Positions 4,332-56,589 of a stretch of DNA of 64,000 bases are shown here, piece by piece. A model generated the notes under the pieces. The model had not been told where the DNA came from. It ran no database searches and saw nothing but the letters and a program-made list of their open reading frames with translations. The first letter of the stretch is position 1. Each line of letters opens with the position of its first letter. The stretch lies in contig JBAYFZ010000001.1 of NCBI GenBank assembly GCA_041666915.1, forward strand, positions 9,086-73,085, written 5' to 3'. The DNA comes from Minisyncoccota bacterium. Lineage in GTDB: Bacteria > Patescibacteriota > Minisyncoccia > Phycocordibacterales > PALSA-1337. Position numbers and translations under genes: made by a program.

Positions 4332-4709
4332 ATGGAAAATGACAAAGAAAAATTTAAAAATGAATTTAAAAAGAGATTGTATAAGTGGGTGCTGAGATTA
4401 GTTAAATTCATTGATAAACTTCCGAAAGATTCAGTCTCCAATGTTATGGGAAAGCAGTTACTTAGAAGTGGTACAAGTATATTGGCAAATTATGTTGAAG
4501 CAAGCTCAGCGAGTTCAAGAAAAGATTTTATTAATTTTTTCACACATTCGCTCAAATCTTCAAATGAGTCAAAGGTTTGGTTAACATTGTTACGTGATAC
4601 GGAGAAGGGAGATGTAAAGGAGTTGCTGTGGTTATTGAAAGAGTTAATTGAGGTTTCGAACATTATAGCTTCCAGCATCATTACGTTAAAGAAGAAAAAA
4701 CAATTATGA
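4332..4709 (+). CDS. four-helix-bundle protein (23S rRNA intervening-sequence protein family, TIGR02436-like)
   Basis: 125-aa ORF with family-typical block 'LLRSGTSILANYVEASSASSRKDFINFFTHSLKSSNES'; sits between rpoB and rpoC. Confidence 0.7.
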   Translation: MENDKEKFKNEFKKRLYKWVLRLVKFIDKLPKDSVSNVMGKQLLRSGTSILANYVEASSASSRKDFINFFTHSLKSSNESKVWLTLLRDTEKGDVKELLWLLKELIEVSNIIASSIITLKKKKQL

Positions 4710-5395: not shown

Positions 5396-8300
5396 ATGCA
5401 ACCAAATATAAATAAAAAGCAAAATGAACCAACACAGTTTGACCTAGTCAAATTGACATTGGCATCACCTGATAAGATCCTTGAATGGTCATATGGTGAG
5501 ATCACCAAACCAGAAACCATCAACTATCGTACACAACGATCTGAAAAGAGCGGTCTCTTTGACGAGCGCATCTTTGGTCCAGACCGAGATTTTGAATGTT
5601 ACTGTGGAAAATATCGCGGTATTCGTTACAAAGGTATTGTTTGCGAAAAGTGTGGAGTTGAAATTACACGCTCAATAGTTCGCCGTGACCGCATGGGACA
5701 TATTGAACTAGCAAGTCCAGTTTCTCATATCTGGTTCCTCCGCAGTGTCCCTTCACGTATTGGTCTTATCTTAGGAATGACTACTTCAGATCTTGAAAAA
5801 GTAGTTTATTTCGCTGGATATATTGTTACCAAAGTTCACGTAGGTGAAAAGGAGAGTTTCCTCAAAGAACTTGATACTGAATACAAGAGTAAAGTTAAGG
5901 CTGCTCAAGATGACAAGACCAAGGAAGCTTTGAAAGAACTCGTAGTCAATGCTCGTAAAGATATTGAAAGTCTCGTAGAAGGTTTTGTTATGGATGAAGC
6001 TACTTATCATAAATTTGCTGTGAAGTATGGCTCTCTATTTGAAGCTGGTATTGGTGCAGAAGTCATATACGAACTTTTGAAGAAGGTTGATTTAGTCAAA
6101 CTCCAAGCAGAATTGATCAAGGTTCATGATGTTGCTGGTACAGCTGATCGTGAAAGACTCTCAAAGCGTTTGTCATTGGTCAAGCAAATGATCAAAGCCA
6201 AGGTTCGTCCAGAATGGATGTTCCTAGTTCGTATTCCAGTCATTCCACCAGGACTCCGTCCAATGGTTGCTCTTGATGGTGGACGTTACGCTACTTCAGA
6301 TGTAAACGATTTGTATCGCCGTGTTATCAACCGCAACAATCGTCTTTTGAAATTGAAAGAGATCAATGCTCCAGAAGTTATTCTCCGCAACGAAAAGCGT
6401 ATTTTGCAAGAAGCTGTAGATGCTCTCATAGATAACTCTATCCGTCACAGTTCTTCTGCTGGTGCTGCCGCAGTTGCTGCTCAGAAGCGAGCTTTGAAAT
6501 CACTCTCAGATAGTTTGAAGTCAAAGAGAGGACTATTTCGTCAGAACCTTCTCGGTAAGCGCGTAGACTATTCTGGTCGTTCAGTTATCGTCGTCGGCCC
6601 AGAGCTCAAACTAGATGAATGTGGTTTGCCAAAACACATGGCCTTGGAATTGTTCCGTCCATTCGTCATCTCAGGACTTTTGAAAAAAGAATTAGCTTAC
6701 AACATTCGTGGTGCAAACAGACTCATTGATGATGGTGCAAAAGAAGTTTGGGAAATTCTAGAAGAAGTTATTAAAGGTAAATACGTACTCTTGAACCGTG
6801 CTCCTACTTTGCACCGTTTAGGTATTCAAGCTTTTAGACCTCAACTTATTGAAGGTAATGCTATCCATGTTCACCCACTCGTATGTACAGCTTTCAACGC
6901 TGACTTCGATGGAGACCAGATGGCCGTACACGTTCCGTTGTCAGATGAGGCTCAGATGGAAGCAAAGATGATCATGGCTTCTGATAGGAACATCTTGAAA
7001 CCAGGTAACAATGACCCTACTGTTGTAGCAAAGATGCTTGATATTGTGCTCGGTTGTTTCTGGGTTACGAAAGTTGTGGCTGGTGCAAATGGTGAAGGTA
7101 AAGCTTTTGAATCTCCTGATTCAGCTATCTTGGCAAATAGTTTTGAAAGTATAGATCTTCGTGCCAAGGTTAAAGTTGTAGCTCCAAATACTCCAAAGTA
7201 TGCAAAATTTGAAGGTAAGATTTTTGAGACTACAGTCGGAAGAATCTTGCTCAACAATATTTTGCCTGATGATTATCCTTTCATCAATGAAGAAGTTGGA
7301 CGCAAATATCTAGGTCAGATTATTGACGACATGATCACTCTCCGTGGAGCTGAGAATGTTGCGCCAATTCTAGATAAGATAAAATCTTTCGGTTTTAGTT
7401 ACGCTACTATTTCTGGTACAACTTGGGGTATTGATGACATCATGGTTCCAGATTCAAAGAAAGCAATCATTGCCAAAGGTAAAGTCCAAGCTGATATTGT
7501 CAGTAAGCAGTTTGATGAAGGTCTTCTTGCAGAAGAAGAAAGAATCAGAAAACATATTGAAATTTGGCAGAGAGCCAAGGGTGAAGTTGAAAAAGCAATT
7601 CCTGCTTCTTTGGACAAGCTCGGTTCTGTCTACGACATGATCACCTCTGGAGCTCGCGGATCCCTATCACAGATCACACAAATGGTTGGTATGAAAGGTC
7701 TTATCTCATCAGTTTCTGGAGAAACTATTGAATTCCCGATCCTATCCTGTTCCAAGGAAGGTCTTACTCCTATTGAATATTTCATTACTACTCACGGTTC
7801 AAGAAAGGGTCTCACAGACACCGCTTTGAACACCGCTAAAGCAGGTTACCTCACACGTAAGCTCTTCGTGGTTGCTCAAGATGTCGTAGTTTCTGAAGAA
7901 GATTGTGGTACAAAAGAATTTATTACTATATACAAGCAGACTGCTTCTGGTATGAATATTCCTCTTTCAAAGAATATTCGCGGACGTAATATTGCTGAAG
8001 ATATCAAGACTGCCGATGGAAAAGTTTTATTTGAAAAGGGACATCTCTTGAATAAGTCGGACGCTCTCAAAGTTGAAGCTGCTGGTATAAATGAAGTCAA
8101 AGTCCGTTCACCACTCTCATGTAAAACTCTACGTGGTGTTTGTTCCAAGTGTTACGGTCTAGACCTAGGTAGGAATACTCCTATCGCTCTAGGTGAAGCT
8201 GTAGGAACTATTGCTGCTCAAGCCATCGGAGAACCTGGTACACAGCTAACAATGCGTACATTCCATGCTGGTGGTACTGCTTCACAAGGTGGAGACATCA

Positions 8301-9531: not shown

Positions 9532-10278
9532 ATGAAACCTGAATTTCTCACAAAAATCGATGCTGTTAAAGCCGAAATCGAAAAGCATGGCGTCCTAGAT
9601 CCGGCATTATTAAAGAATCTTGATGAGTGGTATCGCATAGAATTAACCTACACTTCAAATGCTCTAGAAGGTAACACTTTGACGCGTCAAGAAACCGCAT
9701 TGGTGGTTGAAAAAGATATTAGTATTGATGGTAAGCAACTAAGAGAACTCATTGAAGCGAAGAATCATGGAGAAGCAGTTGAGTTTATTAAAAAATTTGC
9801 CAAGGATCATTCTGGCCTCGGTGATGTCACTTTACCTGCTATTCTTGATATTCATCGTATCATTTTACAAAAGAATGATGACGTGAATGCTGGCAGACTT
9901 CGTAATGTTCCAGTCAGGATTTCTGGTTCAACATCAATAATGCCCAATCCAGCCTCGGTGCCAAAACTCATGGAAGAATTCATTACTTGGTTGAGTAGTA
10001 GTAAAGATCATTCAGCCTCAACCGCTATAGAAGCTCATTATCGTTTTGTCTCCATTCATCCATTTACCGATGGTAATGGTAGAACCGCCCGTCTTCTTCT
10101 TAATCTAATACTTTTACAAAATAATTATCCGCCAGTTATTATTCACCCTGAAGACAGGAGAGTTTACGTAACATCTCTTGAAAAAGCTCAAACAGGCGGA
10201 AGCAAAGATGATTATGAGAATTTTATGTTGGAGGCGGTACTAAAATCGGCAGAGGAGTATTTGAAATCTATTAAATAG
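9532..10278 (+). CDS. fic: Fic family protein (AMPylating/adenylyltransferase fold) with N-terminal inhibitory-helix motif (class II-like)
   Basis: Fic active-site motif 'HPFTDGNGRTARLL' (HxFx(D/E)GNGRxxR). N-terminal 'TSNALEGN' fits the (S/T)xxxE(G/N) inhibitory motif. Confidence 0.85.
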   Translation: MKPEFLTKIDAVKAEIEKHGVLDPALLKNLDEWYRIELTYTSNALEGNTLTRQETALVVEKDISIDGKQLRELIEAKNHGEAVEFIKKFAKDHSGLGDVTLPAILDIHRIILQKNDDVNAGRLRNVPVRISGSTSIMPNPASVPKLMEEFITWLSSSKDHSASTAIEAHYRFVSIHPFTDGNGRTARLLLNLILLQNNYPPVIIHPEDRRVYVTSLEKAQTGGSKDDYENFMLEAVLKSAEEYLKSIK

Positions 10279-17638: not shown

Positions 17639-20600
17639 ATGCCTCGAAATCAGAATACTACCGAATTTGATAAGCTTTATGGCTTCTTGAATATACCCCA
17701 AAAAATGGCTGTAGATACCGTAGAAGGTCCGGTAGTTGTTATTGCTGGACCGGGAACAGGAAAGACCACGGTGCTCACTTTGCGTATAGCAAATATTTTG
17801 AAGAAGACCGACACTGCACCAGAAAATATCCTAGCTCTCACTTTTACCGAATCTGGAGCTTATGTTATGCGACGTAAACTTATGGAGATCATTGGTCCAG
17901 ATGCTTACAAGGTAAATATTCATACATTTCATGGTTTTGCAGAAAAGATTATTCAAGAATATCCAGATTATTTTTCTAGGATTATTGGATCAAAGATTAT
18001 TACTGACGCTGAGCAGGTTAAGATTGTGGAAAAACTTATTCAAGCTCGCGATGTGAAAATTTTACGTCCTTTTGGAGATCCTGGATATTATGTTAAGTCG
18101 GTTTTGAATGAAATACATCTATTGAAGAGAGAAAATATTTCTCCTGAAAAATTACTGAAAAGTGTAAAAGAGGACATGAACGACCCATCTAGATTTGTAA
18201 AAGGGGATAAGGAATTGTCGGCCACCGAAATTGAAAAACTGGAAAAGAGAAATGAGAAAAATCTGGAGTTAGCTGGAATATACAAAAAATACGAAGGGGA
18301 ATTGTCTGAACAAAAATATTACGATTTTGACGATATGCTTTTGGAATTGATAAGAGCTATGGAAAAAGAGCCTATGCTCAAACTTTTTCTTCAGGAAGTT
18401 TACCAATATATCTTGGCTGATGAACATCAAGATGCTAACGCTTCCCAAAATAGAATATTGGAATTGTTAGCAGATTTTCATGATTCTCCAAACTTGTTTA
18501 TTGTCGGTGATGATAAACAGGCTATATATAGATTCCAAGGAGCTTCTTTGGAAAACTTTTTGTATTTTTCCAAAAAATATAAAGATGCTGTAGTCATTGA
18601 ACTTACTCATAACTATCGTTCACATCAGGGTATTTTGGATGCTTCACATAGTCTTATTGTGAATAATCCTAGTGTTCATGGGCGTGATTTACCAAAATTA
18701 TTATCCCTACAAGTTGGTAGTAAGCCAATATTCATAGATGAATTTTCTACTAAAAATGATGAGTTAGAATATTTGGCCAACATTATGGAACGTCTGATAA
18801 AAAAAGGTGAGAAGCCAGAAGAGATAGCTATTTTGTATCGTGAGAATAAAGAAGCCAAAGCAGTGGCTGAAGCTTTGAGATTCCATGGCGTAGTTTGTCG
18901 TATTGAATCAGATCACAACATTCTAGATGATGTTGATTCTGCAAAAGTTATTGCCATTTGCCGAGCTATACACGATCCATCCAATAGTGAATTGTTGGGC
19001 AAAGCCCTACTACTTTCCGAACTCGGTTGTAGCCCAGCTTCTGTCTCGGAAATTTTCAATCATGCTAGTCGCGAAAGAATATCATTATATAAAATAATTG
19101 AAGAACTTTTGGCTGGTAAAAAGTGGCCACAACTTAGAGATTTTATCGGCCCTTCTAGGTTAAATGAAATTAAGAGTGCTTATAAAAAGATTACCACTTG
19201 GTCAGGGGAATCTCAGACGATGGCTTTTCCAGATTTCTTGCAGAAATTGATACAAGAAACAAATTTGTTGGCATCAATAGTTTCTGCACCAAATTCGTTG
19301 GAAAGATTGGCTTCGTTGGAAGTTTTATTTGAAAAAGTCGTAAAAGCTTCTTCATCCAAGAAGACATTTTATCTGGCTGACTTTATAGAATATATAGATA
19401 TAGTCAGCAATCACGGTATCATGACCAAGCGCACTTTCACGGATCATGTCGGCGGTGTACGTCTCATGACTGCTCATCGTGCCAAAGGTTTGGAATTCAA
19501 TCATGTTTTTATTGTTAATGCTGTAGATGGAGTTTGGGGCAATCGTACAAGGCGAAATCATTTTTCCGTTCCAGTCATAGAACATGCTCGTGATGTTGGT
19601 AGGATTGAAGATGAGCGTCGTCTATTTTACGTAGCCATGACTCGAGCTCGTGAATCTATAAACATTTCTTATGCGAGGTTTAATGATGAAAAGGAAACTG
19701 TCAGAAGTCAGTTTTTATCTGAAATAGAACCAACTCTTATTTCTTTCAATAAACCAGAAACTTTAAACAGTCCAGATTTTTTTATTCGTAAGATGAAAAC
19801 TCCACATGCTACACCAGCGGTTTCTATACTCAATCCAGACTTCGTCAGATCAAAGTTTTTGTCACAACCTTTTTCTGTTACTCATTTGAATAGCTATCTG
19901 GAATGCCCGTGGCGTTACTTCTTCGTAAATCTTGTCAGGGTGCCACAGGCGCAAAATAAGCATCAAATGTATGGAACAGCTATACACTCGGCTTTAAGGG
20001 CCTTTTTTGAGGCTTATAAGATAGAAAGAGACATGTCCAAGAAGGAATTAGTTGATATTTTCAAGCATTATTTGGATAGACAGCCTATGTCCACAGATGA
20101 TCGTCAGGATTCATTCAAAAAGGGAAAAGAAGCTTTGGAAGGATATTTTTCTACATACAATGGTAGTTGGGATCGTAACTTGCTTACGGAGTATGCTGTT
20201 AAAGCTGTGGAACTTGAATTAAATATTAAAAATCAAAAAGATAAAAATTCTGTAAAAATAAAGTTATATCTTACGGGTAAACTTGATAAGGTTGAACTTC
20301 TTGATGAGAAGAATGTCCTTGTCGTGGATTATAAAACTTCAAAACCTAAGTCTAGGAATGATATAGAAGGTAAGACAAAAACTGCCAATGGTAATTACAA
20401 ACGTCAGTTGGTTTTTTATAGATTACTTCTTGATGAAAGTAAGAAGTTTACTATGAAATATGGGGAGATAGATTTTATAGAACCTAACGAAAGGGGAAAA
20501 TTCAAGAAAGAACGATTTGAAATAACTGATAGAGAAGTTGAGGATATCAAATCTTTGATAGAAAAAACAGCAAAAGATATTGTTAATCTTTCTTTTATAG

Positions 20601-20662
20601 ATTCAAGTTGTGACGATAAGGAGTGTAGTTATTGCAGACTTGGAAGGCTTCTTAAGAGTTAA
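17639..20662 (+). CDS. UvrD/PcrA-family ATP-dependent DNA helicase fused to a C-terminal PD-(D/E)XK (RecB/Cas4-like) nuclease domain with Cys cluster
   Basis: Walker A 'AGPGTGKTTVLTLRI'; helicase motifs ('DEHQDAN', 'NYRSHQGI', 'VRLMTAHRAKGLEFNHVFI', 'YVAMTRARES'). C-terminal 'VVDYKTSKP' nuclease motif and 'CDDKECSYC'. Confidence 0.85.
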   Translation: MPRNQNTTEFDKLYGFLNIPQKMAVDTVEGPVVVIAGPGTGKTTVLTLRIANILKKTDTAPENILALTFTESGAYVMRRKLMEIIGPDAYKVNIHTFHGFAEKIIQEYPDYFSRIIGSKIITDAEQVKIVEKLIQARDVKILRPFGDPGYYVKSVLNEIHLLKRENISPEKLLKSVKEDMNDPSRFVKGDKELSATEIEKLEKRNEKNLELAGIYKKYEGELSEQKYYDFDDMLLELIRAMEKEPMLKLFLQEVYQYILADEHQDANASQNRILELLADFHDSPNLFIVGDDKQAIYRFQGASLENFLYFSKKYKDAVVIELTHNYRSHQGILDASHSLIVNNPSVHGRDLPKLLSLQVGSKPIFIDEFSTKNDELEYLANIMERLIKKGEKPEEIAILYRENKEAKAVAEALRFHGVVCRIESDHNILDDVDSAKVIAICRAIHDPSNSELLGKALLLSELGCSPASVSEIFNHASRERISLYKIIEELLAGKKWPQLRDFIGPSRLNEIKSAYKKITTWSGESQTMAFPDFLQKLIQETNLLASIVSAPNSLERLASLEVLFEKVVKASSSKKTFYLADFIEYIDIVSNHGIMTKRTFTDHVGGVRLMTAHRAKGLEFNHVFIVNAVDGVWGNRTRRNHFSVPVIEHARDVGRIEDERRLFYVAMTRARESINISYARFNDEKETVRSQFLSEIEPTLISFNKPETLNSPDFFIRKMKTPHATPAVSILNPDFVRSKFLSQPFSVTHLNSYLECPWRYFFVNLVRVPQAQNKHQMYGTAIHSALRAFFEAYKIERDMSKKELVDIFKHYLDRQPMSTDDRQDSFKKGKEALEGYFSTYNGSWDRNLLTEYAVKAVELELNIKNQKDKNSVKIKLYLTGKLDKVELLDEKNVLVVDYKTSKPKSRNDIEGKTKTANGNYKRQLVFYRLLLDESKKFTMKYGEIDFIEPNERGKFKKERFEITDREVEDIKSLIEKTAKDIVNLSFIDSSCDDKECSYCRLGRLLKS

Positions 20663-20677
20663 AGAATTTCTAACTGT

Positions 20678-20793
20678 TGTCATTCCCGCGAAGGCGGGAA
20701 TCCAGGATTATTACGAGATAATAGTTTGCTATAATTTATTTGAAAATGGATTTTGTGGTAACATCCTGGATTCCCGCCTTCGCGGGAATGACA
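20678..20793. repeat. MITE-like palindromic element, copy 1 (TIR 'TGTCATTCCCGCGAAGGCGGGAATCC...')
   Basis: About 30-bp terminal inverted repeats, each itself a hairpin TTCCCGC-GAAG-GCGGGAA. Opposite orientation to copies 2 and 3. Confidence 0.8.
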
Positions 20794-20799
20794 CAAAAA

Positions 20800-21618
20800 T
20801 TATTTCAACAGACTATCTATAATTCCCGTTACCATAATCTTTGGCATTGCACCACTCATAACGATCATCTTTTTATCATCAGTGACGTATAGTAGGCTCT
20901 GAGGAATTCTGTATTGGATAAGAGCATTGGATACATATGTAGTTGCGGTAGGATTGATTTTTTCACTAAGAACAAAGAAACTAGTTGGAGTACCAGAGAC
21001 ATTGGCATTTATACCACTCAATTTTTGAGCACTGACTATATCTTTAGCTTTTTGGCTATTGAGACATTCATTGAATGCAATAATATCAAGACCCAAACCT
21101 TTTGCCATGATAGGGAGTTGTTTTTGATCCAAACCTTCTGGAGTTTTGGAGGTTACTGAAGGAGTCAAATCATAGAGCTTCTTTTCATATTCCCAGAATT
21201 TTTCATTTCCTCCCAAGATACCAGCACATTCTATGGCACGTGATTCATTTGCTGCGTTGGGGTGAAGGACATTACCTTCTGCATCTGGAGTGTCTAGAGG
21301 AAAACTTCTATAAATCAAAGCAACCTTACCTTCTGGTCCATATTTGTCCATTATTTCTACCATTGTTTCGTTGAAGATTTTACAGAATGGACATGAAGGA
21401 TCGGAGTATTCAACAATTTTTATTGGAGCGTTTGGATTTCCCAAAATACGGTCGGCGGATGTTATCGGTGCAAGATTTATGGCTGGGGCATTTTCAACTT
21501 TTGCATCTTTTACAATAGTAGAACTTGGTTTGAATACGTATATGAGAGTCATTGCAATGATAGCTCCGGCAATGATGATGGCTCCTGGTATTGTGATGAA
21601 ACTTGGTTTATTTTCCAT
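20800..21618 (-). CDS. DsbA-family thiol:disulfide oxidoreductase, membrane-anchored
   Basis: N-terminal TM helix; thioredoxin-fold active site 'CPFCK'. Confidence 0.8.
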   Translation of the reverse strand: MENKPSFITIPGAIIIAGAIIAMTLIYVFKPSSTIVKDAKVENAPAINLAPITSADRILGNPNAPIKIVEYSDPSCPFCKIFNETMVEIMDKYGPEGKVALIYRSFPLDTPDAEGNVLHPNAANESRAIECAGILGGNEKFWEYEKKLYDLTPSVTSKTPEGLDQKQLPIMAKGLGLDIIAFNECLNSQKAKDIVSAQKLSGINANVSGTPTSFFVLSEKINPTATTYVSNALIQYRIPQSLLYVTDDKKMIVMSGAMPKIMVTGIIDSLLK

Positions 21619-29642: not shown

Positions 29643-29924
29643 ATTATCTTTTTCGTTGATTTTATTTTTTGATCTCCTATTGCATTCCTATTCCATATAT
29701 AGGTTGTAACAAGAAACCTCCGCGAATAATAGTACAACATTATAAAAAGTTTGCAAGGGAGTGGTAATGTGCACAAACATATGGCGGTTTTCTTCAACCA
29801 ATCGGATCTGTCAGGATGTAGGCGACATCTCGCCAAAAAATCTTCATCACTTCTTCATAACTTTTTTATTGTTTCTTTAACCTTTCTTAATCAGGATTTT
29901 AACTCGTTTTGGTATCATCTTTTT

Positions 29925-35610: not shown

Positions 35611-36585
35611 TTACTTTATCTCACAAACATTTTTCAGTGCGGTAATGTCGTCTGTGGTTAGAGTAAGATTTGAATCCATATTATAGGCGTACATTATAGC
35701 TTTTGAATCTGCTACATGATCCAATCCCAAAGCGTGGCCAAATTCATGAGCCAAGACACGAATTAGTTTGTTGTAATCTTTGTATTGATAAATATTTATT
35801 ATTTGACCAGTTTCATCGCTCACGTATTCTCCTTCTTGAAATTCTGGGCCGTTGGAAGTACTGATGGTGTTATAAGTACTGACATTTTGGTTTATTTCTT
35901 TATTCAAAGAATTCAAACTATTGGCTGTATAGTTGAGTTGATTTATCGTATCATTCAACCTTTTGTTCGCATCATTGATGTTAGTTGCTTCCAAATTGAG
36001 AGAAGCTTTTGTTTTTTGTAACTTGGAGAATTCTTCTTTTGTAGCACCTCCGCGACTGTTCCAATACGCTACAGCTTTTTCATAAGCCGTTTTATTGGCT
36101 TCGTATGTATTTATGAGTATCTGAATAGCACTCTTTTGACTATTATATGAATTTTGCAGAGAAGTGTATTTGGCTTTTAGATCACTATATGAGCTTTTAC
36201 TATTATCTATAGTTGATCCGATAGTGTTCATCTGCACCGTAGCTTCTTGGCGATTGTCAAAAATCAGATTTATTTTGAGGTCGTCTATATCGTTGGTTTT
36301 ATCGTCAGAATATTTGAATAACTCTCTACCAAGTGCTGAATTCCAGATACTTACCGCTTTATTCATATTTGTTATGAATTGTGATCGTGTCTGACCAAAT
36401 TTTTCATCAAAATCTCCAATGTAATATGTTATTGGTATAGTACAAGGCTTGTCCCACCCAATAGATAAGCGGATATTCTGGTAAGCGCGTTTGTAATTGT
36501 CACGATTGTAATAGACGACACCGCCTAGAGTAGCGATGACTAGTAAAAAGAATAGAAATTTTACAATTTTATTCAAAATATTCAT
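35611..36585 (-). CDS. membrane-anchored metzincin (matrixin/M10-like) zinc metalloprotease with coiled-coil insert
   Basis: 'VLAHEFGHALGLDHV' (HExxHxxGxxH) and Met-turn 'AIMYAY'. Start set at Met 36585; the 17 upstream ORF-track codons are the translated repeat element. Confidence 0.7.
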   Translation of the reverse strand: MNILNKIVKFLFFLLVIATLGGVVYYNRDNYKRAYQNIRLSIGWDKPCTIPITYYIGDFDEKFGQTRSQFITNMNKAVSIWNSALGRELFKYSDDKTNDIDDLKINLIFDNRQEATVQMNTIGSTIDNSKSSYSDLKAKYTSLQNSYNSQKSAIQILINTYEANKTAYEKAVAYWNSRGGATKEEFSKLQKTKASLNLEATNINDANKRLNDTINQLNYTANSLNSLNKEINQNVSTYNTISTSNGPEFQEGEYVSDETGQIINIYQYKDYNKLIRVLAHEFGHALGLDHVADSKAIMYAYNMDSNLTLTTDDITALKNVCEIK

Positions 36586-36597
36586 TAATGTTCTTTC

Positions 36598-36693
36598 TGT
36601 GTCATTCCCGCGAAGGCGGGAATCCACGGTTACCACAAGATATAGATTGTTGATTTGTAATAATCCTGGATTCCCGCCTTCGCGGGAATGACG
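36598..36693. repeat. MITE-like palindromic element, copy 2
   Basis: Same TIRs as copy 1 ('tgtcattcccgcgaaggcgggaatcc...ggattcccgccttcgcgggaatgac'). About 85% identical to copy 3. Confidence 0.8.
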
Positions 36694-56077: not shown

Positions 56078-56156
56078 GGGCTAACTTTTGTCTTATCTTT
56101 ATAAAAATATGAATTCAAAGTGCAAAGTGCAAAGTGCAAAGTTTAAGACAATAATT

Positions 56157-56585
56157 ATGTTGTTTGTTTTTTCTGTAATTTTGTTTACACCTTTTGTTCA
56201 AGCACAAACTATTAAACCAGAACCTGTAGATGTGAACAGTTCTTCTTTTAGATTACTCATTTGTGATGGCCCAGTTCTTCCAGCTGGTGTAACTCCTCCA
56301 AAAGCAAACTATGTTCCTTGTGACTTCAAAGGGTTGATGATGCAGATTCAACATTTTATAAATATTGCTATGGTTGGAGGTGTTATCATTGCTATCTTAG
56401 GTATGACTTATGCTGGTATTCTGTATATCTCTGGTAACCCTGCTAAGATAAAAGAAGCTCACGATATATTTCCAAGTATTCTGATAGGATTTATAGTAAT
56501 GTTATCAGCATGGTTTATCGTCTATCAGGTTATAAATTGGTTGACTGGTGGTAATACTTTGAGTGTTCTTCTTGGTAATCCATAA
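56157..56585 (+). CDS. VirB2/TrbC-like (T4SS-pilin-type) small membrane protein, paralog 1 of 6
   Basis: Signal peptide 'MLFVFSVILFTPFVQAQT', then TM1 'AMVGGVIIAILGMTYAGILYI', loop 'SGNPAKIKEAHD', TM2 'ILIGFIVMLSAWFIVYQV'. ORF is open from TTG 56088. Confidence 0.55.
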   Translation: MLFVFSVILFTPFVQAQTIKPEPVDVNSSSFRLLICDGPVLPAGVTPPKANYVPCDFKGLMMQIQHFINIAMVGGVIIAILGMTYAGILYISGNPAKIKEAHDIFPSILIGFIVMLSAWFIVYQVINWLTGGNTLSVLLGNP

Positions 56586-56589
56586 AATT

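Follow-up and report, generated by a model that had tools for sequence, protein, structure and literature searches.

Paired NTS-type hairpins in a Paceibacteria genome and their probable origin from a hairpin-ssn cassette

A 64,000-nt stretch of contig JBAYFZ010000001.1 (GenBank assembly GCA_041666915.1, positions 9,086 to 73,085 of the forward strand), hereafter the window, carries three short intergenic palindromes. The contig belongs to a metagenome-assembled genome (MAG) of Paceibacteria, within the Candidate Phyla Radiation (CPR). Judged by their sequence, the three elements are head-to-head doublets of a described and widespread hairpin family, whose members have been called NTS (Neisseria Transformation Sequence) or SRM (Ssn-related motif), dRS3 core, CGTC-1 ‘REP’ and RPE-6. 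We propose that these doublets are gene-less miniatures of a cassette in which the same hairpins flank ssn, the gene of a small GIY-YIG nuclease, that they have spread in intergenic DNA, and that they are recognised by the resident Ssn protein; we give this explanation a probability of about 0.8. It is not a new kind of system, but a known family together with its described partner, Ssn. Coordinates are window positions unless a locus handle (L and a number) precedes them.

Three intergenic doublets of one hairpin

An initial annotation of the window, made from its letters, had singled out three palindromic repeats. Each of these intergenic elements, 94–116 bp long, is made of two inverted copies of one exact 25-mer, GTCATTCCCGCGAAGGCGGGAATCC. 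This arm has 6 matches in the window and none in 100 dinucleotide-preserving shuffles, and a search of the window with up to 3 mismatches recovered no arm beyond the six. In all three elements the arms are identical and their 5' tags point outwards, with 38–60 nt between the arms. The termini form perfect inverted repeats of 31, 26 and 27 nt in copies 1, 2 and 3, in agreement with the perfect terminal repeats that had been claimed. The extents originally assigned to copies 1 and 3 were exact, whereas the start given for copy 2, 36598, lay 2 nt too far out (Table 1). Copy 1 had been described as inverted with respect to copies 2 and 3, and alignments bear this out: taken together, its left arm and subterminal sequence complement the right arm of copy 3 at 39 of 39 positions. 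Copies 2 and 3, for which about 85% identity had been estimated, are 88.5% identical. The spacers are of two conserved types, long in copy 1 and short in copies 2 and 3.

As single-stranded DNA (ssDNA), an arm is predicted to fold at −8.9 kcal/mol, a value equalled by 0 of 200 shuffles. The GAAG loop of this hairpin had been recognised from the outset, but its stem (ATTCCCGC/GCGGGAAT), first counted as 7 bp, has 8 bp on folding. Whole elements are predicted to form one long hairpin of −37 to −42 kcal/mol (z = −11 to −14); individual values are −42.2 kcal/mol (z = −12) for doublet 1, −37 to −38 kcal/mol for doublet 2 and −38.6 to −39.3 kcal/mol for doublet 3. The G+C content of the window is 39%.

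Table 1. Positions of the three doublets and their arms in the window. SRM, match to the degenerate SRM pattern; NTS mismatches are counted against the NTS consensus.
Feature	Position	Strand	Description
Doublet 1, long type, 116 bp	20678..20793	+	Same orientation as ssn cassette; 60-nt spacer
Doublet 1 left arm, TGTCATTCCCGCGAAGGCGGGAATCCAG	20678..20705	+	TGTC tag, 8-bp stem, GAAG loop, CCA tail; exact SRM; 1 NTS mismatch
Doublet 1 right arm	20766..20793	-	Minus-strand NTS; SRM; 1 NTS mismatch
Doublet 2, short type, 94 bp	36600..36693	-	Inverted relative to ssn cassette
Doublet 2 plus-strand arm, TGTC...CCAC	36600..36627	+	SRM; 2 NTS mismatches
Doublet 2 minus-strand arm, CGTCATTCCCGCGAAGGCGGGAATCCAG	36666..36693	-	SRM; perfect match to NTS consensus
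Doublet 3, short type, 96 bp	61999..62094	-	Inverted relative to ssn cassette
Doublet 3 plus-strand arm, TGTC...CCAT	61999..62026	+	SRM; 2 NTS mismatches
Doublet 3 minus-strand arm	62067..62094	-	SRM; 1 NTS mismatch

The arms match the NTS, dRS3 and CGTC-1 hairpins

The NTS consensus, CGTCATTCCCGCGMAVGCGGGAATCYRG, is a superset of the 20-bp dRS3 repeat ATTCCC-N8-GGGAAT (Chenal et al., 2025, PMC11893778). All six arms match exactly the degenerate SRM pattern of the same study, HGTCWYN(0-2)YYVSBRHN(0-5)WNVSBRGN(0-2)RNCYNB, and a scan of the window with this pattern gave no match apart from them. Mismatches to the NTS consensus number 0 in one arm, 1 in three and 2 in two; the published NTS search tolerated 1 mismatch (PMC11893778). 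Every arm has GTC 5' of the stem and C directly 3' of it, and the dRS3 core is present in 6/6 arms, with core-to-core distances of 68 nt in copy 1 and 46 and 48 nt in copies 2 and 3.

CGTC-1 repeats are CGTC-tagged REPs in which the tag, frequently TGTC, precedes a stem of 8 bp with a loop of 4 nt, and a CCA tail follows; they occur mostly as head-to-head homodimers with conserved spacers of 20–100 bp, and have been equated with Neisseria dRS3 and with RPE-6 of Rickettsia conorii (Di Nocera, 2013, PMC3733652). The arms in the window have the same features: a TGTC or CGTC tag, an 8-bp stem starting with AT, a 4-nt loop and a CCA tail. A literature search on the peptide and DNA strings of the element returned no match, and Rfam at its gathering thresholds found two tRNAs and nothing else in the whole window, leaving the elements unmatched.

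A hairpin-flanked ssn-type gene lies just beyond the window

In Neisseria, the partner of the NTS is SsnA, a 94-aa GIY-YIG protein that binds the NTS only as ssDNA and in one orientation, and cuts a few nucleotides upstream of it; the typical ssn locus has the order NTS–ssnA–NTS, and the family (CDD cd10448) is widespread (PMC11893778). We extended the contig rightwards as locus L244, in which a position equals the window position minus 52,487. Here, exact hairpins at L244 17470–17494 (+) and 17826–17850 (−) bracket an open reading frame (ORF) of 96 aa at 17523–17813, downstream of mreC. In window-equivalent coordinates this cassette spans 69957–70337, about 6 kb to the right of the window, and its inverted repeat is perfect over 35 nt, GTCATTCCCGCGAAGGCGGGAATCCAGGATATTACC.

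The encoded protein, which begins MNKVYYVYILANDKNGTLYIGVT, appears to be of the Ssn type. It matches PF01541 (GIY-YIG) at 1e-18 over residues 5–78 of 96, and aligns end to end, at 122 bits, with a profile that we built from hairpin-flanked GIY-YIG genes in IMG/VR viral contigs. Its residues Y8, Y19 and E66 have the same spacing as Y6, Y17 and E64 of SsnA, whose mutation abolishes cutting (PMC11893778). The only sequence relative in the PDB is UPF0213 protein BH0048 (E = 5e-4).

The arrangement recurs elsewhere. The profile found 11 Ssn-type ORFs in 1.94 Mb of hairpin-bearing loci from viral contigs and many phyla; 10 of the 11 have a hairpin within 150 nt on both sides, and the remaining one is cut by a contig end and has hairpins on its readable side. 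Typically a forward hairpin lies a few tens of nucleotides upstream of the start codon, and an inverted hairpin just past the stop. When ten such units were aligned, the DNA outside the hairpins was unrelated, and the hairpins were more conserved than the gene. A homologous ssn cassette in L257 (77.6% DNA and 78% protein identity) lies between hydrolase-like and RNase J-like genes.

Doublets and cassette remain colinear past the hairpin. On the left, upstream of ssn, they share CCAGGAT(T)ATTAC.A.A; on the right they share GTGGTAA..(A)TCCTGG, a sequence that the cassette has immediately after the ssn stop codon. This shared subterminal sequence is asymmetric and 10–20 nt long, and the doublets have a 40–60-nt spacer where the cassette has the gene. 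Because the doublets are colinear with the ends of the cassette beyond the hairpin itself, they resemble miniatures of it that lack the gene.

Placement differs between close relatives

The window's FtsZ is encoded on a 450,810-bp metagenomic contig (ENA ERZ27249449, k141_1421082) and is recorded at NCBI as a protein of a Candidatus Paceibacterota bacterium; the nearest relatives are Paceibacteria and Taylorbacteria MAGs. No hairpin is present at the ftsZ/M10 protease junction, the site of doublet 2, in L246 (FtsZ 92% identical), L247/L248 (87%), L249 (87%) or L250 (85%). The hairpin-free relatives retain the gene order ftsZ–M10 protease–thioredoxin-reductase-like gene, and their ftsZ/M10 intergenic gaps are 43 nt in L247/L248 and 14 nt in L249. 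Likewise, no hairpin is found at the DsbA/helicase junction in L264, L265 or L266. Conversely, L246 has one doublet after the protease gene and another within ydjM, and L265 has doublets at two other junctions (6911–6974 and 10136–10221); all of these sites are empty in the window. An arm variant in L265, GTCATCCCCGCGAAGGCGGGGATCC, carries a compensatory stem change, T-to-C on one side and A-to-G on the other. Placement thus differs between close relatives, and sites turn over.

Copies are also found outside these relatives. A scan of JGI metagenomes with a family-specific subterminal 20-mer returned at least 11 loci, mostly from sample Ga0172379 and with L257 among them. The central parts of the elements had been thought variable; instead, doublets of both spacer types in this sample are 93–98% identical to the window copies, spacer included, doublet 2 being 93.6% identical to L253 and doublet 3 94.8% identical to L260. 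Comparison of the Ga0172379 loci with the window by blastn revealed no shared flanks, and hence gives no measure of how related the organisms are. No target-site duplication was recognised in 11 doublets and cassettes inspected, whose flanks share only a loose TGT...ACA symmetry.

The empty-site comparison that the initial annotation had advised thus yielded hairpin-free ftsZ/M10 and DsbA/helicase junctions. The same annotation had held that confinement to three copies with conserved placement would speak against a mobile element; since placement differs in relatives and copies occur elsewhere, this is not the pattern found. The evidence that doublet and spacer form a copied unit consists of the hairpin-free junctions in relatives, the differing contexts of the cassettes and the colinear subterminal ends.

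Three observations on these loci may be recorded separately. In L264 (10904–11003) a different palindromic element, TGCAGGTGAGTGACAGATGTGTGAC…, occupies the DsbA/helicase junction, which is the site of doublet 1 in the window. The ydjM doublet of L246 (348–495, inside the gene at 151–885) is in frame and adds ~55 residues (…SFPRRRESS…LRGND…), and its right arm is interrupted by a small GTCGCCGGAAGTGGCGAC hairpin. In L250, a 631-nt insert bounded by ~50-nt direct repeats lies between ftsZ and the next gene (11309–11939), and it has no Rfam match at E <= 0.01.

The hairpin is shared by many bacterial lineages and viral contigs

The exact 25-mer occurs at at least 120 loci in IMG/VR viral contigs and at at least 120 loci in GTDB species genomes; the counts from these collection scans are lower bounds, and the taxa are a sample. 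The GTDB matches listed come from Bacteroidota, Alpha-, Beta-, Gamma- and Deltaproteobacteria, Planctomycetota, Chloroflexota, Nitrospirales, Gemmatimonadota, Acidobacteriota, Zixibacteria, Campylobacterota, Patescibacteria and a Rickettsia endosymbiont, so that among them the 25-mer is identical in more than a dozen major lineages. Flanking DNA at the viral loci shows no relationship in sequence or composition, and conservation extends beyond the hairpin by about 1 base 5' (C) and 2 bases 3' (AG). Among the GTDB matches listed, 57 of 111 exact hairpins are paired head to head with another one within 150 nt, tags outward (median spacer 38 nt); the window elements, being doublets, thus have the usual form. 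In five unrelated IMG/VR contigs (L005, L006, L009, L041 and L052), the full hairpin is also preceded, at a distance of about 20 nt on its upstream side, by a second, partial copy of its 5' half, ccGTCATTCCCGc.

Comparison with described systems

With the NTS/SRM–SsnA system (PMC11893778) the present locus shares the hairpin sequence, the hairpin–ssn–inverted hairpin cassette and a putative single-domain GIY-YIG nuclease about as long as SsnA (96 against 94 aa), with equally spaced catalytic residues. It differs in its host, a CPR MAG, whereas published ssn homologues are mainly from Pseudomonadati, and in having isolated doublets at low density rather than large clusters. Gene-less doublets that share the subterminal sequence of the cassette are not described in that paper, where resemblance to insertion sequences is raised merely as a hypothesis.

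The elements resemble CGTC-1 REPs (PMC3733652) in tag variant, stem, loop, tail, homodimeric form and spacers, in their location near gene 3' ends and in the spurious short ORFs that they create. In the CGTC-1 survey the family turned up in five phyla, and no dedicated transposase or other enzyme was reported; here a partner gene lies next door, and the host phylum is absent from those five.

NIMEs are dRS3 repeats flanking units of 50–150 bp, and the RS elements of Neisseria measure 19–214 bp (Bentley, 2007, PMC1797815). Besides sharing the dRS3 core, copy 1 (68 nt) falls within the NIME unit range, and copies 2 and 3 (46–48 nt) fall just below it but inside that of RS elements. Unlike dRS3/NIME, the window elements form isolated units rather than long arrays in the 73 kb examined, revealed no link to phage integration, and have a GAAG loop where Neisseria has mostly GCAG.

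As in REPIN–RAYT systems (Bertels and Rainey, 2011, PMC3116915), two inverted hairpins and a spacer fold as one, and the non-coding units are kin to a single-copy gene bracketed by the repeats. The tag, however, is CGTC instead of GTAG, the enzyme is a hydrolytic GIY-YIG protein instead of an HUH tyrosine transposase, and the hairpin sequence is common to many phyla. REP sequences, by contrast, generally vary between lineages.

In-frame insertion into genes is a hallmark of Rickettsia palindromic elements. RPE-6 belongs to the same hairpin family, and the in-frame ydjM doublet of L246 is a likeness of this kind; all three window copies, in contrast, are intergenic, and their translated arms match no NCBIfam model. 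The NCBIfam protein models thus gave no support for a link to the Rickettsia palindromic elements; the equation of CGTC-1 with RPE-6 comes from PMC3733652.

Alternative explanations

Of the alternatives, the one that survives best is that the doublets are domesticated cis sites, not currently mobile, which mark ssDNA for cutting by Ssn and so tune transformation or recombination, as NTS do in Neisseria meningitidis. There SsnA lowers transformation by NTS-bearing DNA, deletion of ssnA raises it about 5-fold, and mutation of the NTS sites abolishes the effect (PMC11893778). The genome studied here holds both the hairpins and an ssn gene, and type II/IV secretion and pilus-type genes (T2SSE, T2SSF, pilins) are present. 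Paceibacteria depend on DNA uptake, so its control could matter. Yet positions are not conserved between relatives with a common gene order, no clustering around particular genes is seen in the 73 kb read, and whole doublets, including the spacer, are near-identical in unrelated contexts, which fits copying better than the retention of fixed sites. We regard domestication as possible but rather unlikely to be the full account; it is nevertheless compatible with mobility and with the origin from the cassette that we propose.

The elements might instead act at the RNA level, as REP-like stem-loops that terminate or stabilise transcripts or alter the expression of neighbours, with Ssn irrelevant to their upkeep. 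Copy 1 lies within 16 nt and 7 nt of two convergent stops, a typical CGTC-1 REP position (PMC3733652), folding predictions give very stable hairpins for the element as a whole, and its ATGACA outer end gives weak outward −35-like matches upstream of rpmF and the protease gene. We consider a role of this kind improbable as the reason for the elements' persistence. Structure alone would not hold 25 nt identical over more than a dozen major lineages, and hairpins changed in the stem but kept in structure lose SsnA activity, SsnA itself having no action on RNA (PMC11893778). Copy 3 lies between divergent genes, where a terminator would have no obvious use, and Rfam has no match. An intrinsic terminator in particular was ruled out, as none of the three copies has a terminator-like site with a T tail.

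The initial annotation, with TnpB as its example, had suggested that an IS200/IS605-type enzyme (RAYT, TnpA or TnpB) drives the doublets as REPINs or MITEs. This is very improbable, even though the doublets are built like REPINs, from a pair of inverted hairpins that carry a conserved 5' tetranucleotide and fold together into a single long hairpin. Their tag is (C/T)GTC and not GTAG, no RAYT with CGTC repeats on its flanks was found in any species (PMC3733652), the gene that these hairpins do flank encodes a 96-aa GIY-YIG nuclease, and no Y1 transposase, TnpB (OrfB) domain or RAYT is found among the called genes of the 73 kb examined. As to the features expected of MITEs, perfect inverted repeats of 26–31 nt are present, no duplication was recognised, and the parent-like cassette encodes a nuclease not known to transpose. 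The two labels originally offered, mobile element and REP-like repeat, both pointed in the right direction, given the REP-like family, the shifting placement and the ends shared with the cassette; it was the partner that was wrong, and the hairpin had not been recognised as a motif already described from across the bacteria.

A possible mechanism, and what weighs against it

In the explanation that we prefer, descent of the doublets from the cassette and recognition by Ssn, each arm would fold in ssDNA into a (C/T)GTC tag, an 8-bp stem, a GAAG loop and CCA. The small single-domain Ssn nuclease would bind this arm and cut a few nucleotides before the tag, on its 5' side, provided that the DNA is single-stranded and the arm in the one orientation that it accepts. 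Resident Ssn would recognise doublets when the DNA is single-stranded, during replication, DNA uptake or repair. Each strand of a doublet would present one forward hairpin at its 5' side, and the two Ssn cuts would then fall just beyond the ends of the unit, one on each strand. Copying after these cuts could go via repair, template switching or some ligation step, and the doublets would spread and still turn over in intergenic DNA, analogously to REPINs beside a RAYT gene. We infer that Ssn cutting is what mobilises the doublets.

A bolder version, which we hold only tentatively and think may well be wrong, is that in Paceibacteria the cassette of ssn and its two hairpins is active and propagates itself, with the doublets as its non-autonomous miniatures, in a REPIN-like but GIY-YIG-driven arrangement. 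Cutting by Ssn 5' of each outward-facing tag, once per strand, would then release the unit or lead to its copying. If true, it would explain the identity of the 25-nt hairpin across more than a dozen major lineages.

Several points tell against our preferred explanation. GIY-YIG nucleases hydrolyse DNA and, to our knowledge, are not known to join strands; nor do we know of any strand transfer described for Ssn, and for this reason a transposition mechanism is lacking. The Ssn label of the 96-aa protein comes from the profile and the residue spacing, and cleavage of the arms by this putative Ssn is carried over from homology. Four of the six arms have TGTC in place of CGTC, and two of the six have C or T where the consensus has its final G. 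The relatives have diverged too far in their intergenic DNA for a precise empty/filled junction, or a duplication, to be defined, and the count of copies covers ~73 of the 450 kb of the contig. Finally, the published role in Neisseria is restriction of transforming ssDNA, and not mobility (PMC11893778).

Flanking genes and false ORF starts

All three copies are intergenic, at the gene junctions to which they had been assigned. Copy 1 lies between convergent genes, a UvrD/PcrA-type helicase with a PD-(D/E)XK nuclease domain (stop at 20662) and a DsbA-like thioredoxin (stop at 20800). Copy 2 separates the ftsZ stop (36703) from the start of the M10 metalloprotease gene, and copy 3 lies between the divergent tRNA-Lys (61865–61939, minus strand) and rpmF.

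Spurious ORF extensions had been attributed to all three elements. This is so for copies 2 and 3, whereas neither ORF flanking copy 1 is touched. For the M10 protease ORF, copy 2 contains the GTG start as well as the start chosen by the gene-caller. The extended rpmF ORF begins at an ATG at 62089, inside the minus-strand arm of copy 3, and its L32 match starts from ORF residue 22; the true start of rpmF is likely the in-frame ATG at 62143.

A weak outward-facing −35-like hexamer, ATGACA, is provided by the outer end of the element, GGAATGACA, and a −10-like hexamer follows it. Such pairs lie upstream of the M10 protease gene (36577–36605, minus strand) and of rpmF (62089–62118, plus strand); they are consensus matches only, at 9/12 positions. 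Two short contigs of the same strain from other assemblies are broken exactly within an arm, at the end of L003 (1903–1927) and the start of L245 (1–25); the breaks fall there because the arm is a multi-copy repeat.

Other features of the window

A second repeat family, unrelated to the NTS hairpins, brackets the sigma-70 gene (16251–17480): a 114-nt direct repeat, 93% identical, at 16068–16181 and 17470–17583, each copy of which is an AT-rich palindrome. A 58-nt inverted repeat, 90% complementary, joins 15387–15444 and 29862–29919, 14.4 kb apart, and may be a leader or promoter region shared by two genes. The 3' end of a NusB–NUDIX fusion gene contains a zero-spacer palindrome (63383–63444; 31-nt arms, 87% complementary). 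Short AGTGCAAAG-type repeats lie near the pilin cluster and tRNA-Leu (56114–56157, 61752–61795 and 61832–61859), and six tandem small paralogues with a T4SS_pilin domain (PF18895) occupy 56088–58541. A gene of the 23S_rRNA_IVP family (PF05635) lies between rpoB and rpoC (4332–4709), and Fic and PemK toxin-type genes are found at 9532–10278 and 11303–11629.

Significance

The value of the finding is foremost for annotation: these hairpins yield false ORF starts, here in the M10 protease gene and rpmF, and they also yield short fake proteins with VIPAKAGIQ, SFPRRRES and DSRLRGND motifs, and assembly breaks. What is new is modest, namely the Paceibacteria host and comparative evidence for doublet plus spacer as a copied unit derived from the ssn cassette. 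The finding adds a CPR lineage with a very small genome to the range of the Ssn/NTS pair, and bears on the question left by the 2013 and 2025 papers, that of what spreads the CGTC/NTS repeats.

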